Source of the DNA: a virus
Taxonomy: Duplodnaviria; Heunggongvirae; Uroviricota; Caudoviricetes
DNA: 64,000 nucleotides
Reading direction: 5' to 3' (one strand)
IMG/VR virus record: IMGVR_UViG_3300037067_005176
Coordinates: 61,081-125,080 of that record
Every line of letters begins with the position of its first letter. Within the stretch, counting starts at the first letter, position 1. This document shows, one piece after another, positions 29,941 to 62,770 of this stretch. Made by a program: the position numbers and the translations under genes. A model generated the notes under the pieces. The model was not told where the DNA came from. It saw only the letters and a list, made by a program, of their open reading frames with translations, and ran no database searches.

Positions 29941-30939
29941 ATGAGGTTTATGTTGCGTGGAATTAAATTGAATATTGATGATGTTATTGAACGTTTTAAA
30001 TTTATTCATAATAATGAATACGGTTATTGTAATATCACATCATATAAAAATAAAACTGAAAAGCTTGAAATCGTTTGTAAACAGCATGGTTCATTTTTTC
30101 AATCTGCGCATTCTCATTGGAACGGAAGCGGTTGCCCCAAATGTTCAAATTCAAAAATATCAAAATCTAAAGAATATACACAAGAAGAAGCATTGAATAA
30201 ATTTAGGTCTGTTCATCAAGACATATATGATTATTCGGCGGTTACTTACAATGGGTGCGGTAATCATATATATGTAATTTGTAAAAAACATGGAACATTT
30301 AAAGTAAGACCTTGCGATCATTGGAATGGACGTGGTTGTCCTAAATGTGGAAGATTAAAAGCGGCCGAATCAACGAAACTTAGTTTTGATGAAGTCATTG
30401 AAAAGTTTAAACTTAAGCATGGTAATTTATATGATTATTCAAACGTTGTGTATAAAGATTGTGCAACAAAAGTTCAAATAAAATGTAATAAACATAATAT
30501 AATGTTTTCACAAATGCCTTATAATCATTGGAATGGACAAGGATGTCCATTGTGCGGTCAAGAAGCACAGTCATCACATTCAAAATCAATTTGGGAAACT
30601 GAACTTTCAAAAGAATTAAAACGACATATTGATATAAAGACAAACAATCGTACTTTATTAAAAGGACTTGGCCCTAATGGCGGTGATTTGGAATTGGACA
30701 TGGTTTTTAATAATAAAGCCATAGAATGTAATGGCACATATTGGCATTGTGATAATCGAATTTATAAAGAAGACTTTGTCGGTCCTTACGGAAAATTAGC
30801 TAAAGATATTTGGAAATATGATAATGAAAAAATTGAAAAGGCAAAAGCTGTCGGTATTGATGTGCTGACTGTTTGGGAAAACGATTATAAAAACTATAAA
30901 GTTGATGTGATTGAAAAATGTTTAGAATTTTTGAGGTAA
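29941..30939 (+). CDS. Putative homing endonuclease (3 Zn-binding DUF723-like repeats plus PD-(D/E)XK)
   Basis: Three C..HG/HN.F...H.NG.GCP.C repeats; LELDMVF...AIECNGTYWHCD. The start may be 29950. Confidence 0.8.
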   Translation: MRFMLRGIKLNIDDVIERFKFIHNNEYGYCNITSYKNKTEKLEIVCKQHGSFFQSAHSHWNGSGCPKCSNSKISKSKEYTQEEALNKFRSVHQDIYDYSAVTYNGCGNHIYVICKKHGTFKVRPCDHWNGRGCPKCGRLKAAESTKLSFDEVIEKFKLKHGNLYDYSNVVYKDCATKVQIKCNKHNIMFSQMPYNHWNGQGCPLCGQEAQSSHSKSIWETELSKELKRHIDIKTNNRTLLKGLGPNGGDLELDMVFNNKAIECNGTYWHCDNRIYKEDFVGPYGKLAKDIWKYDNEKIEKAKAVGIDVLTVWENDYKNYKVDVIEKCLEFLR

Positions 30940-30942
30940 ATC

Positions 30943-31599
30943 ATGTACGATAAGAATCCTCGCCTCCGTTGTGAAGGTGAATCAATAGAATATACAAAAG
31001 AAATGATTCAGGAATACGTTCGTTGTAAAGAAGATATTATTTATTTCGCGGAAAAATATTTTAAAATTATTTCATTTAAAGGAGAACATAGTATTGAGTT
31101 GCGTGATTATCAAAAGCGAATGTTAAAAGCAATGGTTGGAGGTGATGACGATCCAAGACCTCACTGTGCTGTAAACGCTAGTCGACAAATTGGAAAAACA
31201 ACGATTTCTACAATTTTTATAACGCATTTTTTAATATTTAATGAATTAAAAAATGTTGCAATTCTTGCTAATAGAGAAAAAACTGCGATTGAAATTATTA
31301 ATAAGGTAAAGTCCGCGTATGTTGGTCTTCCTCTTTGGTTACAACAAGGAATTTCGGATAGATACGGGGGTTGGACTAAAACTTCAATTGGATTAGAAAA
31401 TGGATGCAAATGCGTTGCATCATCAACAGCCGCGGCAGCAATTCGTGGTATGACTATTAGCTGCGTAGTTGGTGATACGGTAATAACTGTTAAAGATAAA
31501 GAAACGGGTAAGATTAAAGATATAACAATGGAAGAGTTGGCCGATGAACTAAGTGATTATGATAATGATTACGGAAACTTTAATATAATTTTGAAATAA
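30943..31599 (+). CDS. gp17: Terminase large subunit, N-terminal half plus N-intein
   Basis: LRDYQ, Walker A SRQIGKT, ILAN, LP.WLQ, AAIRG; then intein block A CVVGDT and a stop. Confidence 0.93.
   Translation: MYDKNPRLRCEGESIEYTKEMIQEYVRCKEDIIYFAEKYFKIISFKGEHSIELRDYQKRMLKAMVGGDDDPRPHCAVNASRQIGKTTISTIFITHFLIFNELKNVAILANREKTAIEIINKVKSAYVGLPLWLQQGISDRYGGWTKTSIGLENGCKCVASSTAAAAIRGMTISCVVGDTVITVKDKETGKIKDITMEELADELSDYDNDYGNFNIILK
31462..31596 (+). mobile_element. Split intein N-fragment (45 aa)
   Basis: CVVGDTVITVKDKETGKIKDITMEELADEL resembles the short IntN of TerL-type atypically split inteins. Confidence 0.88.
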
Positions 31600-31678
31600 A
31601 ATGCCCAGGAATCACTGAAGATATGATAGGAAAAACATGGAAAGAATTAGGTTGGGGTTTTGAGGTGAAATATGAGTA
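31584..31678 (+). pseudogene. Probable C-terminal relic of a free-standing HEG between the intein halves
   Basis: An open frame spans the gap: YNFEIKCPGITEDMIGKTWKELGWGFEVKYE*. Confidence 0.45.
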
Positions 31679-32028
31679 AAGATTCAAAATATATAGAAAT
31701 TTTTGTTAATAATAAATATGAAGTTTTGACGAATGAAGGTTTTGAAGATTTTTCGGGTATCGGTATATCTAAAAATACAAATTATATTAAAATTGTGTTT
31801 GATAACGAGGCTGAAATAACTGTAACATCCGAACATTGTTTGTTTGATTTAAATAAAAATCCAAAATCAGCAAAAGATATAAAACCGTACGATTTTATTT
31901 GGTGTATAGGTGGTTTTATTTCAGTAAAGAGCGTTGAAAAATTAGATGAAGATTTATACGCATATGATTTAATTAATGTTAAAAATGAAAAACACTCTTA
32001 TATAACTAATAATGTAACATCACAAAAT
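31672..32028 (+). mobile_element. Split intein C-fragment (119 aa), no endonuclease domain
   Basis: Ends YITNNVTSQN, followed by Cys+1 at 32029. Confidence 0.9.
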
Positions 32029-33177
32029 TGTTTGTTCCTTGACGAATTTGCTTTCGTTCCACAAGAGATAGCGAATGATTTTTTTGCTTCTGTGTATCCA
32101 ACTATCACGCGAGATCCAAATGCGAAAATTATCATTGTGTCAACTCCAAATGGTCTTAACCATTTCTATGACATCTATAAAGGTGCAGTATCAAATGAAA
32201 ACAACTTTAGACCTATTAAAGTAAATTGGTGGGAAGTTGAAGGTCAGGATGACGAATGGAAAAAGAAGATCATCCGAGATTTAGGTTTAGTGCGTTTTCA
32301 ACAAGAATATGGGGCTAAATTCCTTGGTTCATCATCCACACTTATAGAAGCAGAATGCCTTGAACGCATTAAGACCAAAAATGCTATAGATACTAAATAT
32401 GGTGGATTAATGCAATTGTTCGAGCATCCACAAGTTGGTAAGCATCATTACATTTTAGGTATTGACTCAGCTGGTGGAACTGGTGCTGACTATTCAGTTA
32501 TTCAAGTATTTAAAATTGTTTCGCATACAGAAATTTATCAAGTTGCAACATATGCTAATAATATGATTTCTCCTCATAACTTTGCTGAGATATGTATTGG
32601 TATTTCTGATTATTATCTTCAAGCTGGCATGATGGTTGAAAATAATGAAATGGGTGGTCAAGTTGCTGATAAGATTTGGTATGACTTTGAATGTGATAGA
32701 GTATTCAATACCGATCCTAAAGGAATTGGAACAAGATCAACAAGAAAATCTAAACTTATTGCAAACATGTTAACCAAGAGATATATTGAAGAAGGTTGGT
32801 TGAAACTTAATAATGCTGAAACTGTTAGACAGTTTGGCATGTATGAAGAAGTTACTCCAAACGTTTTCAGAGGTCCAAGAACTGACCATGATGACCAAGT
32901 TACATCAATCATTTGGGGATTGTATTATTTGCAGACTCCATTCTTTGAAGGTGATCTTACATCTGTTCGTCGTTCAATTAGCGAAGTATATAAAATCATT
33001 CCTGATGAAGAAGCTGATAGAGCAATGCTTAAAAAGAAATCTTTATCAAGAGGTCCAAGTTCATTTGCAGACGATGATGGATATTCGTCTAAGGATGAAG
33101 ATGACGAGGGAATTAGACCTCCTGTTATGGATGATGACGATGACTCGTTTGAATGGCCAAATAGTTTAGACGATTAA
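31672..33177 (+). CDS. gp17: C-intein plus terminase large subunit C-terminal half
   Basis: Own SD GAGG. Intein blocks B (TSEH), F (YDLINV) and G (SQN/C), then Walker B LFLDEFAF, STPNG.NHFY, GIDSAGG.G.DYS, HDDQV. Confidence 0.93.
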   Translation: MSKDSKYIEIFVNNKYEVLTNEGFEDFSGIGISKNTNYIKIVFDNEAEITVTSEHCLFDLNKNPKSAKDIKPYDFIWCIGGFISVKSVEKLDEDLYAYDLINVKNEKHSYITNNVTSQNCLFLDEFAFVPQEIANDFFASVYPTITRDPNAKIIIVSTPNGLNHFYDIYKGAVSNENNFRPIKVNWWEVEGQDDEWKKKIIRDLGLVRFQQEYGAKFLGSSSTLIEAECLERIKTKNAIDTKYGGLMQLFEHPQVGKHHYILGIDSAGGTGADYSVIQVFKIVSHTEIYQVATYANNMISPHNFAEICIGISDYYLQAGMMVENNEMGGQVADKIWYDFECDRVFNTDPKGIGTRSTRKSKLIANMLTKRYIEEGWLKLNNAETVRQFGMYEEVTPNVFRGPRTDHDDQVTSIIWGLYYLQTPFFEGDLTSVRRSISEVYKIIPDEEADRAMLKKKSLSRGPSSFADDDGYSSKDEDDEGIRPPVMDDDDDSFEWPNSLDD

Positions 33178-33185
33178 TATAATTG

Positions 33186-33225
33186 AAGAGGAATTCAAAA
33201 GATTCCTCTTTCTTTATTATAAATA
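33186..33225 (+). terminator. Terminator plus late promoter for gp18
   Basis: AAGAGGAAT/ATTCCTCTT stem; TATAAATA at 33218-33225. Confidence 0.7.
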
Positions 33226-33293
33226 ATTATGTTAATTAATTCGTGACGTGAGTGAAATAAGTTTATTAAATGTTTATTAAATAAGAGGTAAAA

Positions 33294-35087
33294 ATGTCAC
33301 AAGCATATAGCACACCTGGTGTGTACAGATTAGAAAAAGACCTTTCAAATGTTGTTCGTCCACTTGGTACAAGTACTGGAGCAATGGTTGGAAAGGCAAA
33401 CGTTGGACCTGTTAATCAAAGAATTTTGGTTAATACCGACAAGCAATTCGTAACAACTTTTGGAATTCCAGTATCTTCGGATAATTTTGCTCATTACGGT
33501 GCAATTCAATTCCTTAGCGAATCTCAAAATCTTTGGATGGTTCGTTGCTCCTATGGCGATGAAAAGTATTCAAACGTATTAATCCCAACAGTCTCAGCAA
33601 CAACAACTTCAGCAACTTCCGCTGTAAGTATTTCGGCAATGCCAACTTCGACAGCTTTGGCTGATGCTGATTATTCCGATGGTTATACATTAAGAACACA
33701 GGATACTGATCCTGGTATTGGCGATATTGAAGAAGCTGCTAATGCGACTAATTATATCACCTTTGCATCAATTGGTCCAGGATCTTATGGAAATGATTTA
33801 GGCATTGCTGTTATCGTCCCTTCTATGTCCGCAATATCCGGAACTAACGGATTTAATTGGAAATACAAGTATGATGATACTGCAGATATTGAAACAACAA
33901 ACGCGATTTGGAAAAAAGTATATCGCGTGAATGTTTATACGAAGAATTCTTCTCAGGACGCGGCAACTGCTTGGGGAACCGGTTCTTCAGCCATTACAGC
34001 AAATACTCCAGTAGAATCATTCTTTGTATCAAATGATCCTACTCTTAAGGATGCAAATGGTAAGAGCCTTTATGCTCCATTTGTAATTAATGGAGTTTCT
34101 GCATACATTTATATGAAGAAAACTGGTCTCGCAAACATTATGCCAAGCGATGCATCAAATACTGTTGGTGTTTCTCAATTGACAAGTGGCGTAAATGGTA
34201 CTTCTGCAGGATCTTCTCAGAAGACTGCTGCTTTAGATCTTTATGCCGATCGTACAAAAGTTGGTGTAAATATTATCATCGTTCCTGATGAAATTGACAC
34301 AACTGTTGGCACTGATGTAACATATGTTCAGAAAGCTGGAAATATTGCTGTGGCTCGTCAAGATTGTATTGCAGCTGTTCAATGTTCCTCAAAAGCAAAC
34401 AAGACTCGTGATCAGATTAACGCGGCTCTTGCGGCATTCAGTTATAACAATCCTTCATATGTTGCTCCTTATGTTGGATTTGATAAGATTTATGATCAAT
34501 ATACCGATTCCGAAGTATATGTTCCAAAATCTGTAGCCGGCGCAACGTTGATGGCTCGTACTGACCGTGTCGCGAACACCTGGGATGCACCAGCAGGCGT
34601 TAACCGTGGTATTATTGGATATTCAATTGGACAAAATACAAAGCTTACAGAAGATGATATTGGGTCAATATATGATAACAATGGAAATACTTCTAAGTTC
34701 GTTACTGGTTACGGACATGTAATGTGGGGTCAAAAGACTGCACAGAAGAAGGCATCAGCATTGGATCGTATAAATGTTCGTAGATTGCTTCTTTACATTG
34801 AAAATACAATTGAGCCAAGTTTGCTTCCTTTCCTGTTTGAATTGAACAATGATAGAACGCGTTCTCGCGTATTCGCTATTATTGATCAGTTCCTTTCTAC
34901 AGTACAAGCGGGTGGTGGTTTGACACAGTATAAAGTTGTATGCGACTCTTCTAACAATACTTCACAGGTGATAGATAATAATCAACTAAATGTTGATATA
35001 TATGTCCAGCCTTCTAAAACGATTGAATTCATTCAACTACAAACCATCATCACGCGTTCTGGTGTTGATTTTAACGAAGTTGTTTAA
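33294..35087 (+). CDS. gp18: Tail sheath protein
   Basis: TPGVY..EKD, GPVNQ, WDAPAG.NRG, WGQKT, DRINVRRL, FELND..TR, IEFI. Confidence 0.97.
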   Translation: MSQAYSTPGVYRLEKDLSNVVRPLGTSTGAMVGKANVGPVNQRILVNTDKQFVTTFGIPVSSDNFAHYGAIQFLSESQNLWMVRCSYGDEKYSNVLIPTVSATTTSATSAVSISAMPTSTALADADYSDGYTLRTQDTDPGIGDIEEAANATNYITFASIGPGSYGNDLGIAVIVPSMSAISGTNGFNWKYKYDDTADIETTNAIWKKVYRVNVYTKNSSQDAATAWGTGSSAITANTPVESFFVSNDPTLKDANGKSLYAPFVINGVSAYIYMKKTGLANIMPSDASNTVGVSQLTSGVNGTSAGSSQKTAALDLYADRTKVGVNIIIVPDEIDTTVGTDVTYVQKAGNIAVARQDCIAAVQCSSKANKTRDQINAALAAFSYNNPSYVAPYVGFDKIYDQYTDSEVYVPKSVAGATLMARTDRVANTWDAPAGVNRGIIGYSIGQNTKLTEDDIGSIYDNNGNTSKFVTGYGHVMWGQKTAQKKASALDRINVRRLLLYIENTIEPSLLPFLFELNNDRTRSRVFAIIDQFLSTVQAGGGLTQYKVVCDSSNNTSQVIDNNQLNVDIYVQPSKTIEFIQLQTIITRSGVDFNEVV

Positions 35088-59926: not shown

Positions 59927-62770
59927 ATGAATTCTAATGCATATATAGTTTTGACAGAACAAGGATTGTCAGCAATTGCTACAAACCCTTGGCCGCAGAT
60001 CGCTATAAAGTACTTTCTTCCAATGTATGATGAAAGTGTTGATATACTTATTCACAGCGATGCTGGTCCAACATCCGCATCATCATTATCTGCAGTAGCT
60101 ACGTCTGCTGATACTCAAGCAACTTTAAGAGGAGAAAGAATTTACAATGTTCCTTCTACTTCTGGTGTGTATTCATTAACATCAAAAAATGTTGCAACTT
60201 CTGCAGCTACTTCAATCTTTAACGGTGATGCAGTAATATACTCTTCAACAGTTAATAAAACAAATTCAAGAACTTTGTTTAATGGCTCTGCTTTATCAAC
60301 TGTAGTATCTGGTAACGTTGAACCTGTGTATGATATCGGAAGTCAGAATCTTCAGTTTGACGGCGGTTCAGCTGTTGCATTGCCAGGAATGACTTGGTCA
60401 ATTGATGGTTCTCATATCTTTAGAAATAATTTGTTTGATAGTGTTTCATTCAATCCTAATCAGGTTAACAACGGAGCTTATGATGTTGTTAATGGTCTTT
60501 TCAAGTTTGAACTTAAGAATGATGTTGGCTCATATAGATTTAACAAAATTGCATTCTTTATTCAACCAATGAATGAAAATGGATCTGTGAATGATTATTA
60601 TGATCCTATCTTGTTTGGCCAAGTAATATTTGATAAATCTCAAATCGTTGAAGTTGGTGGAACAGGCTCACAGACTTTTGAAGTTGCAATTCAATTGGCA
60701 TTTGCGATAAGAAACGGTACTTCAGTTGTAACGAATAACGATTATTGGTCAATGGTTCCACTTTCTGCATCTAATAGAGCACAGAACGGTTTGTTCTTTG
60801 CAGGTGATATTGCATTAGGTACAAGCGCGATTCCAAATTCATGGCAACCAAGAGCTAAAGTACATATTACAGACAATTCAAAAACTCCACATATGAGACT
60901 TTCATATAGTGACGCTACATCAGGCCTTGATGTTAAAGTTACTGATATTGGTACTAGTGGTATGGTTTCATTCGTTCCAACAAGTGGATATGCAAAAGGA
61001 TTTGGATTTGCTTTTGGTGAAGGAGCTTATGCATCTGCAGATCCATTATATAATTATGGAAAAACTTATGTTGCATTTGCTTTTGGAACAAGCGCAGTAG
61101 CGATAAGATCAGAAGCGATTGCGATTGGTTTTCAATCATCAGCAGTTTCAAATAGTTGCGTATCAATAGGTTCATATAATTTTACTGATAGAAATGACTC
61201 AATGTCATATCCTGGTTTTGCTTTTGGTCGTTCAAATAATGCTAAAGGAAATACTTACTCAATTGCGATGGCTGTTGGCGATAATAATATAGTACGCGGT
61301 GGTCATGCTTTCGGTACTAGAAATTCTACATCAGGTGCCTATGGTGATGTTTTTGCAATCGGTAATAACTTATATGTTGGTAACTTTTTAAATAACGGTA
61401 TAACAGATGCATATGCATTTGGAGCACAATCATCAGCTGTTCATCAACACGCATATAGCATTGGTTTACAAAACTGTGTCGCATCTCCTTATAGCTTTGC
61501 ATTAGGTATGATTAATGTATTAAGCGGAAGCAACCCATACAATGGATCAATAGGTTACAATAACATCATTAATGGTAATTCTAAGAACTGGGTGTTTGGT
61601 GCTGATACAATTGTATCTTCCGCAAAAAATTCAGTTTCAATCGGTAACGGAAATGATTTAAGAGTTAAAGGAGATGATTTAAGAATTAAAGGAACATCTT
61701 TAGTTTTTGGCAACTTTAATGACGGTACGTATGGTGGTCTCTTAGTTGGAACAAGCAACGCCGGTCCAGGTTATGTATTTGGAGATTGGTCATATGCATA
61801 TCATAATTCAGTTGCTTTAGGAACTAGTGCAAGAGCCGCATCGTATGATTCAATTTCAATTGGAACTGGCGCAACTGCCCCACATACATTAGGTGTATCA
61901 CCTTTACCAGATGAATCTGTTAGTACTCGAAACATTGCTATTGGTCCTGATTCTTATATAGCAAACACTGCTTCATATTGTATTTCAATTGGATCTGAAG
62001 CACAATCGGTGACTGTATCTGGTTATGCGACAAGCGTCGGTAATGAATCAAGATCAACATTTAGATCAACTTCATTAGGTGCATGGACAAAAGCTTATGG
62101 TATTGAAAGCGTTGCAATTGGTTATAACGCAAACACATACGGTTTAGATGCCACAAATCCAGTACTTGAGCACGGTGTTGATAATTTTGGAATAAAAGGT
62201 CTTATAGCTGTTGGTTCAAATGCATTAGCGTGGGGAGAAAATTACGGTATTGCAGTTGGGTATTATTCTGTTGCGAAATCTACACGAGATGCATCATCTA
62301 ATTTGTATCCAGCATTATCTGTTGGTTCTGAATCTGAAACTATTGTTTCTGTAGGAATTGGAGCATCAACAACCTATGGAGCAAAACCATATCCAATGTC
62401 TACATTTGGTGCAAATTTAACAAATCAATATGCCGGATTTATGGCAGGAGTTCATGCAAAATCTGATGTTGAATTGTCTGGTTTGTTAGGTCCAACAGCC
62501 GACTGGAATTTTAGACCTTGTGTCGTATTTGGTTCAGGTCCAACAGCCGGTGATCCAAGAAACGGTTTAATGGTCGGTTATATTTCAACCCCAACAAGCG
62601 GTGTACAAACTGCGGTTGTTTTAGATATTGACAATATGCCTAGTTTTACAAATTGGACTCGCGAACAAATTGATGAAAATGTTGATATCAATGCATTACC
62701 ACGAGGAACACTTATTAAACAGTTCAGTAGTTCATATGGTCTTTCAAGCCTGTTTATGTGGGAAGGGTAA
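59927..62770 (+). CDS. Tail fibre with YadA/Hep-Hag-like repeats
   Basis: N-terminal LTEQG.SAIA fibre-attachment-like region; many A.A(I/F)G..(S/N) repeats. Confidence 0.7.
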   Translation: MNSNAYIVLTEQGLSAIATNPWPQIAIKYFLPMYDESVDILIHSDAGPTSASSLSAVATSADTQATLRGERIYNVPSTSGVYSLTSKNVATSAATSIFNGDAVIYSSTVNKTNSRTLFNGSALSTVVSGNVEPVYDIGSQNLQFDGGSAVALPGMTWSIDGSHIFRNNLFDSVSFNPNQVNNGAYDVVNGLFKFELKNDVGSYRFNKIAFFIQPMNENGSVNDYYDPILFGQVIFDKSQIVEVGGTGSQTFEVAIQLAFAIRNGTSVVTNNDYWSMVPLSASNRAQNGLFFAGDIALGTSAIPNSWQPRAKVHITDNSKTPHMRLSYSDATSGLDVKVTDIGTSGMVSFVPTSGYAKGFGFAFGEGAYASADPLYNYGKTYVAFAFGTSAVAIRSEAIAIGFQSSAVSNSCVSIGSYNFTDRNDSMSYPGFAFGRSNNAKGNTYSIAMAVGDNNIVRGGHAFGTRNSTSGAYGDVFAIGNNLYVGNFLNNGITDAYAFGAQSSAVHQHAYSIGLQNCVASPYSFALGMINVLSGSNPYNGSIGYNNIINGNSKNWVFGADTIVSSAKNSVSIGNGNDLRVKGDDLRIKGTSLVFGNFNDGTYGGLLVGTSNAGPGYVFGDWSYAYHNSVALGTSARAASYDSISIGTGATAPHTLGVSPLPDESVSTRNIAIGPDSYIANTASYCISIGSEAQSVTVSGYATSVGNESRSTFRSTSLGAWTKAYGIESVAIGYNANTYGLDATNPVLEHGVDNFGIKGLIAVGSNALAWGENYGIAVGYYSVAKSTRDASSNLYPALSVGSESETIVSVGIGASTTYGAKPYPMSTFGANLTNQYAGFMAGVHAKSDVELSGLLGPTADWNFRPCVVFGSGPTAGDPRNGLMVGYISTPTSGVQTAVVLDIDNMPSFTNWTREQIDENVDINALPRGTLIKQFSSSYGLSSLFMWEG

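Follow-up and report, generated by a model that had tools for sequence, protein, structure and literature searches.

The window analysed here is a stretch of 64,000 nucleotides (nt) from an uncultured T4-like virus of the class Caudoviricetes (positions 61,081 to 125,080 of the IMG/VR record IMGVR_UViG_3300037067_005176, which is 189 kb long). It carries the gene of the large terminase subunit, TerL, as two adjacent, co-oriented open reading frames (ORFs), with a short N-terminal intein fragment (IntN) at the end of the first and a long C-terminal intein fragment (IntC) at the beginning of the second (Table 1). The initial annotation of this DNA, made from the letters and their translations alone, had the gp17-like gene stop after an IntN of 45 amino acids (aa) that begins with C174 (CVVGDT), and had a second ORF, with a Shine-Dalgarno sequence of its own, open with a 119-aa IntC that ends in SQN before a Cys; the coordinates of all these elements were confirmed. 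The Terminase_6N family of Pfam is spread over both ORFs, with profile positions 3–109 in ORF1 and 100–211 in ORF2, while ORF2 also contains the Pfam family Terminase_6C and a weak match to Intein_splicing. Residues 1–119 of ORF2 end in TSQN and are directly followed by C120-LFLDEFAF. The N-terminus of ORF2, MSKDSKYI, resembles those of the closest relatives (MSKDANYI in P0028 and MSLDAKYI in P0009; here and below, each relative is the single representative of a cluster formed at 50% identity), which supports a genuine, conserved translation start. Pattern scans revealed neither a T4-type late promoter box nor a terminator-like hairpin between ORF1 and ORF2, and judging from these scans the two ORFs are therefore most likely co-transcribed; a tail sheath gene lies downstream of terL, and the terL unit is closed ahead of it by a hairpin and a late promoter box.

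Table 1. The split terL locus and its surroundings (positions refer to the 64,000-nt window)
Feature	Position	Strand	Description
ORF1	30943-31599	+	218 aa; TerL N-extein and IntN; stop codon at 31597-31599
ORF2	31672-33177	+	501 aa; IntC and TerL C-extein
TerL N-extein	30943-31461	+	173 aa; N-terminal part of the ATPase domain; Walker A SRQIGKT; C-terminal end AIRGMTIS
IntN	31462-31599	+	45 aa (C174-K218) and stop codon
Gap between the halves	31600-31671	+	72 nt; 3' relic of a GIY-YIG gene, in a different frame
Shine-Dalgarno sequence of ORF2	31662-31667	+	GAGGTG, 4 nt before the ATG at 31672; read from the sequence
IntC	31672-32028	+	119 aa; blocks B (T52-S-E-H55), F (YAYDLINV) and G (ITNNVTSQN); last residue N119
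TerL C-extein	32029-33177	+	382 aa and stop codon; C+1, Walker B and catalytic Glu (CLFLDE), rest of the ATPase domain, RNaseH-like nuclease domain
Terminator-like hairpin	33185-33211	+	3' of ORF2; pattern scan
T4-type late promoter box	33218-33225	+	TATAAATA; after the hairpin; pattern scan
Homing-endonuclease-like gene	29941-30939	+	332 aa; free-standing; stop 4 nt before the terL ATG; context, not a part of the intein

The N-extein aligns with residues 91–248 of T4 gp17 (E-value 4e-28) and matches the terminase large subunit family phrog_5989 (E-value 7e-49), while the C-extein aligns with T4 gp17 residues 252–574 (E-value 5e-30), with LFLDE placed on IYIDE; the T4 positions 249–251 are filled by the two leftover residues of the N-extein and the +1 Cys. 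The intein is located between the positions of A250 and M251 of T4 gp17, the latter opening the Walker B strand (251-MIYIDE-256 in T4, C-LFLD-E here). On these alignments the exteins are complete and colinear with T4 gp17 91–574, with nothing missing, and their ligation would give a TerL of 555 aa. The junction AIRGMTIS-CLFLDEFAF, as drawn in the initial annotation, agrees with this analysis, but the element that it restores, described there as the coupling motif, corresponds to Walker B with the catalytic Glu. The junction peptide given there, which started at M, must also be revised: the predicted tryptic junction peptide of the spliced TerL is GMTISCLFLDEFAFVPQEIANDFFASVYPTITR, whose first residue is G (GMTISC...).

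Residues 6–120 of the C-terminal fragment match chain B of the PDB entry 6DSL, the consensus engineered intein CatC, with an E-value of 6.7e-8. The IntN, which is too short for such a comparison to be decisive, yielded only chance-level matches when searched alone against the PDB, and so did the IntN of a relative from a different insertion-site group (site D). The IntN of the window is composed of a core of ~30–33 aa (from block A, CVVGDT, to MEELADEL) and a tail of 12–15 aa (...YGNFNIILK). It holds block A only, while the TxxH motif and blocks F and G are found in the IntC, which places the break between block A/N2 and block B. In an alignment of the IntN with 8 further TerL N-halves terminating at this site, C1 and V2 are invariant; an IntN of 31–51 aa is present in at least 9 N-halves that stop at the identical site (...IS/CV..., the slash marking the extein-intein boundary here and below), and a tail of similar appearance (N-x-F-x-I/L-I...) occurs in three relatives, P0152, P0156 and P0210. 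In the set of 25 IntC sequences from the same site, which exhibit just 31–42% identity to the IntC of the window, there is no variation at T20, G23, H55 and C+1, and conservation reaches at least 90% at T52, Y98 and N113; the terminal IntC residue is Asn or Gln in all 25 (N119 in the window, followed by C120). The features typical for class 1 inteins are a nucleophilic C174 (invariant in the 9 same-site IntN sequences), the T52-S-E-H55 version of block B, and N119 followed by C120; the penultimate His, which is usual in class 1 but not universal, is replaced by Q118, and penultimate Lys, Ser or other residues instead of His are found in many split relatives with the same insertion site. On the grounds of sequence similarity, we assign the intein to the same family as AceL-TerL, GOS-TerL and Cat.

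A two-chain model was built for the IntN with 12 extein residues and the IntC with 14 extein residues, each supplied as an alignment. The complex obtained an ipSAE of 0.76 in three runs, compared to 0.00 for the best of 3 controls (58 of 80 solved complexes attain that mark, as do 2 of 110 mismatched pairs), with a partner pLDDT of at least 64 and a contact agreement of at least 67%. The interface is formed by IntC residues 117–120, block B and residues -3 to 33 of the IntN, i.e. it unites the N-junction (IntN region -3 to +4), block B and the C-junction, and residues 1–33 of the IntN contact the IntC; the last 12 residues of the IntN have no place in the model. The model supports the assembly of the two fragments into one predicted HINT fold with both splice junctions together. 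The match to CatC, the conserved catalytic residues, the colinear exteins and this association model with its controls all bear out the earlier assignment of the pair to the short-IntN/long-IntC type represented by AceL-TerL and GOS-TerL.

According to the mechanism we propose, the fractured gene would be expressed as an N-polypeptide (the N-extein with the 45-aa IntN) and a C-polypeptide (the 119-aa IntC with the C-extein). The IntN would most likely dock on a partly folded IntC and thereby complete the HINT domain, and a class 1 reaction would follow, comprising the acyl shift at C174, the attack by C+1, the cyclisation of N119 and the S-to-N shift, by which ...RGMTIS would be joined to CLFLDE... 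at the start of the Walker B strand to produce one continuous TerL. We consider it likely that the two polypeptides are joined by such trans-splicing; that it takes place, and that packaging depends on it, is what we infer. Several points weigh against trans-splicing. Q118 stands in place of the His that usually assists Asn cyclisation, and the Gln-Asn ending is unique to the window among 47 relatives of its insertion-site group (site B), where His-Asn, His-Gln, Lys-Asn, Ser-Asn and others occur; the IntN alone has no relative in the PDB and its 12–15-aa tail is left unplaced by the complex model; the success of the model may stem from the likeness to the solved structure 6DSL, and would then speak of family resemblance and not of activity; and the record is ~69% complete, which leaves room for a second, intact terL elsewhere.

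Were the Gln at the penultimate position to slow or block Asn cyclisation, the polypeptides could associate through the intein fragments without ligation, and the ATPase would then be rebuilt only by non-covalent dimerisation of the HINT halves. The complex model itself supports association only, and the NrdA protein of phage Aeh1, split by a homing endonuclease gene, provides a precedent, being reported as a fragmented phage enzyme that is assembled without splicing (PMC3045599). However, C1, T52, H55, N119 and C+1 are all retained across relatives of such low identity, which is hard to explain by selection for binding alone; without splicing, a HINT domain of 164 aa would remain in the ATPase core, right at its Walker B strand; and the characterised members of the family, AceL-TerL and GOS-TerL, do splice (PMC11766414). 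We therefore regard association without ligation as improbable.

ORF1 and ORF2 are in the same frame, but the 72 nt between them contain five in-frame stop codons (TAA, TGA, TAG, TAG, TGA), and for this reason a single sequencing error is no explanation for the split. In another frame the gap reads KCPG-ITEDMIGKTWKELGWGFEVK, with 17 of 20 residues identical to the C-terminus of a 290-aa GIY-YIG ORF in the related locus L006 (tblastn E-value 5e-11 in a search space of 360 nt); the same tail is present in the endonuclease of locus L008, and the DNA alignment runs from the relic into the start of the IntC. Because of this match and this alignment, the gap is identified as the remnant (the last ~20 codons) of a deleted GIY-YIG homing-endonuclease gene. 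A mini-ORF of 18 codons within the gap (MIGKTW...) is devoid of a ribosome-binding site and is regarded as relic sequence.

The loci compared differ in what they have kept. L006, which harbours the closest IntC relative (P0028), contains the N-half with an IntN of 30 aa, the 290-aa GIY-YIG gene, the C-half and then the sheath gene, while L008 exhibits the gene order of the window, including an upstream patatin gene, followed by the N-half, a GIY-YIG gene, the C-half and the sheath gene. L011 represents a second lineage without the endonuclease gene, and its gap is 38 nt long. The identity between these loci amounts to 52–65% in the exteins vs 34–38% in the inteins. By comparison of gene orders, L006 and L008 represent the ancestral layout: the gene in the window descends from a fractured gene with a free-standing GIY-YIG homing endonuclease between its halves, the endonuclease gene was deleted later, and its last ~20 codons now serve as the spacer and ribosome-binding region of ORF2. 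The locus clearly captures a late stage in the history of such a gene, in which the endonuclease that split it has been lost, the dependence on trans-splicing has presumably been kept, and the last endonuclease codons persist in the spacer that bears the ribosome-binding site of the second half. As a separate observation, the TerL N-half of L008 (4001–5134) possesses an extra contiguous mini-intein in the P-loop (RQIGK/C...SHN/TT) besides the split intein before Walker B, and the terminal residue of that split intein is Gln (CRQ/C), not Asn. Two ideas concerning the IntN tail were rejected. An origin from the endonuclease gene (YGNFN vs YGKFN, E-value 0.34) was discarded, as L008 keeps its endonuclease gene and yet has a similar IntN tail, and a zipping of the tail onto the N-terminal extension of the IntC as a β-hairpin found no support in the model, where the tail has no defined place.

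The same data bear on the possibility that the split is an artefact of assembly or sequencing and that the true gene is a contiguous intein-containing terL. The contig is metagenomic and contiguous intein-containing terL relatives do exist (e.g. P0024, P0027 and P0002). A 5.9-kb Logan contig, from a separate assembly of a groundwater metagenome run made with a second assembler, spans positions 30700–33400 with no difference and no gap, at a depth of ~9 and with no variants. This run is the only one that holds the gap between the halves and is probably the source sample, hence the contig speaks for reproducibility and not for independence; the landfill run X2 contains identical pieces of the C-extein only, with nothing across the gap, and provides no independent view of the split. 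No RNA run is listed among the sequencing runs that hold the sequence of the locus. With five in-frame stops in the 72 nt, with the gap homologous to the 3' end of a real endonuclease gene at the same place in other loci, and with the start of ORF2 in agreement with those of its relatives, an artefact is hardly credible.

A different objection would be that the phage is defective and its terL a pseudogene in decay, or that an intact copy exists elsewhere, and that the two ORFs are not used. The incompleteness of the record (an estimated 69%) and the clear decay of the endonuclease gene between the halves would be compatible with this view. Nevertheless, both ORFs are of full length and retain every TerL motif, ORF2 has a good ribosome-binding site and an N-terminus like those of its relatives, the two-piece layout recurs in many distinct phages, including the cultured Salmonella phage SEA1, and the 189-kb record yields no TerL match besides these two pieces. 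We consider disuse of the two ORFs very unlikely, and trans-splicing remains our preferred explanation.

An exhaustive HMMER search for relatives of the IntC identified 530 cluster representatives at E-values of 1e-3 or below. Among the best 149 of these 530, for which the layouts were counted, the IntC is located at the N-terminus, as in split genes, in 93, and is internal in 55; split TerL genes of this type are accordingly common rather than rare. The relatives fall into at least five groups with respect to the insertion site in TerL: in the P-loop, before Walker B, inside Walker B (/CDE), after the Walker B Glu (E256/C257 in T4), and before a conserved FLGSS.TLI motif; the site before Walker B, which is that of the window, accounts for 30 split and 16 internal cases among the best 149. 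An equal diversity exists among the N-halves with a short IntN at their end. In three metagenomic pieces of TerL (P0021, P0040 and P0075), an extein of only six residues, C-L-x-x-D-E (the Walker B strand), lies between one IntC and the next intein. No near-identical DNA to the locus of the window was found in the phage collection, and a search of viral contigs for related loci by the IntC alone revealed no confirmed relative; the corresponding search with ORF1 revealed six loci, all of them distant.

Further split genes were observed in the same phage. A gp41-like replicative helicase is split at the P-loop (L023 1710–3637, minus strand; G000:C1:51709-53636, ~7.4 kb before the start of the window): its N-half ends in ...LFLAG/CVTKDTKVRIRYKK, with an IntN of only 14 aa, and is followed by a gap of 53 nt, while the C-half starts with an IntC of ~133 aa, which ends in SHN/TNVGKT and matches the VidaL intein (PDB 6VGV) with an E-value of 1.6e-8. 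The UvsX recombinase is also split at the P-loop (L023 3669–6681, minus strand; G000:C1:53668-56680), into a 99-aa N-piece ending in ...ALGK/C with an IntN of 27 aa, two endonuclease-like ORFs, and a C-half with an IntC of ~160 aa that ends in INHN/S and has no match among PDB sequences. With the TerL intein included, the phage has three inteins of the atypically split type. A gp43-like DNA polymerase is likewise distributed over two ORFs (L023 6974–9870, minus strand), one of 135 aa, whose end lies immediately behind the exonuclease motif YIDIEV, and one of 798 aa. The homing-endonuclease-like gene immediately upstream of terL matches the HNH endonuclease family phrog_559 (E-value 1e-42) and also the homing endonuclease family phrog_3339, and contains repeated zinc-ribbon HWNG.GCP.C units; in the syntenic relative L008 no gene of comparable size was found in its place, and an ORF resembling a paralogue of it lies between the UvsX pieces (L023 5031–5726).

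Short-IntN inteins with an atypical split are prized in protein semisynthesis and labelling, and any further pair that is active therefore has some practical value; the window contributes an intein whose penultimate residue is not His and whose insertion site precedes Walker B. Perhaps this phage runs three atypically split inteins simultaneously, that of TerL in the window and those of the gp41-like helicase and UvsX ~6–11 kb upstream of its start, all at or beside nucleotide-binding motifs, which, if all of them splice correctly in one cell, would form a naturally co-evolved, mutually orthogonal set with short IntN fragments? We put this forward as a tentative suggestion that is rather doubtful at present. 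If it is true, the TerL member (with the site before Walker B, the Gln-Asn ending and the extended IntN tail) would provide multi-site protein labelling with a new, useful allele. Orthogonality of the TerL pair is, however, unsupported, because block A of the IntN is much alike across the family and the IntN fragments of GOS and AceL have been reported to be interchangeable (PMC11766414).

The arrangement has clear counterparts among described systems. Dassa et al. (2009) reported 'fractured genes', in which the halves of a host gene and a split intein are accompanied by a free-standing homing-endonuclease gene located between them, including one gp17-like terminase locus, and described for the GOS terminase intein a 122-aa C-part that carries every N-terminal motif except N1 (PMC2677866). 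The locus of the window shares the same overall origin, and L006 and L008 exhibit exactly that layout with a GIY-YIG gene; the window, in contrast, has a 72-nt gap with a relic of ~20 codons in place of an endonuclease gene, which corresponds to the state after its loss, as in L011.

Among cultured phages, the TerL C-halves of Salmonella phage SEA1 (Gelderlandvirus), Shigella phage JK32 and Campylobacter phages of the genus Fletchervirus (e.g. CP30A) open with a homologous long IntC. SEA1 has an N-half with a 40-aa IntN at its end and differs from the window in that its split is shifted six residues towards the C-terminus, to a place behind the Walker B Glu (IYIDE/C, T4 E256/C257), and in that a TnsA-like nuclease gene is located between the TerL halves. 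The split terL of cultured phages such as SEA1 passes unremarked in the annotation. In CP30A, the protein annotated as 'DNA packaging protein' (L001, NC_018861.1 74590–75918) is the C-half of TerL only, with the long IntC first; the gene preceding it encodes a head-tail adaptor and not a terminase piece, so the N-half must be elsewhere in the genome. For a related Campylobacter phage, terL has been described as containing 'an intein and an intron' (PMC3322345).

VidaL (PDB 6VGV), likewise a phage intein with an atypical split and a very short IntN, resides in a different host gene and is more distant in sequence. The closest characterised systems are AceL-TerL, GOS-TerL and Cat, the last being a consensus of GOS-TerL and AceL-TerL, whose IntN fragments comprise 37 and 25 aa and IntC fragments 115 and 104 aa, respectively (PMC11766414). 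They have in common with the window the TerL host of a T4-like phage and the break after block A/N2 and before block B, and AceL-TerL and Cat also use Cys1 and Cys+1 as nucleophiles (table in PMC11766414). In size, they possess an IntN of 25 aa (AceL-TerL), 37 aa (GOS-TerL) and 30 aa (Cat) and an IntC of 104–115 aa, compared to 45 aa (with a core of ~30 aa) and 119 aa in the window; the intein of the window is ~30–40% identical to them, ends in Gln-Asn rather than His-Asn, and has the additional IntN tail. The CatC crystal construct (6DSL) continues with C-E after the junction, like the relatives with a CEFLGSS C-extein, whereas the window has C-LFLDE before Walker B; judging from this construct, the insertion site of the window probably differs from that of Cat. 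The particulars of the window are accordingly the endonuclease relic, the Gln-Asn ending, the longer IntN tail (common to three relatives) and probably the insertion site. As the arrangement is well known, the finding leaves its understanding unchanged: a two-piece terL with a split intein is of a kind that has been published since 2009 and is present in cultured phages, and the window represents its simplest, two-piece form, in which the endonuclease relic between the halves is the sole new detail.

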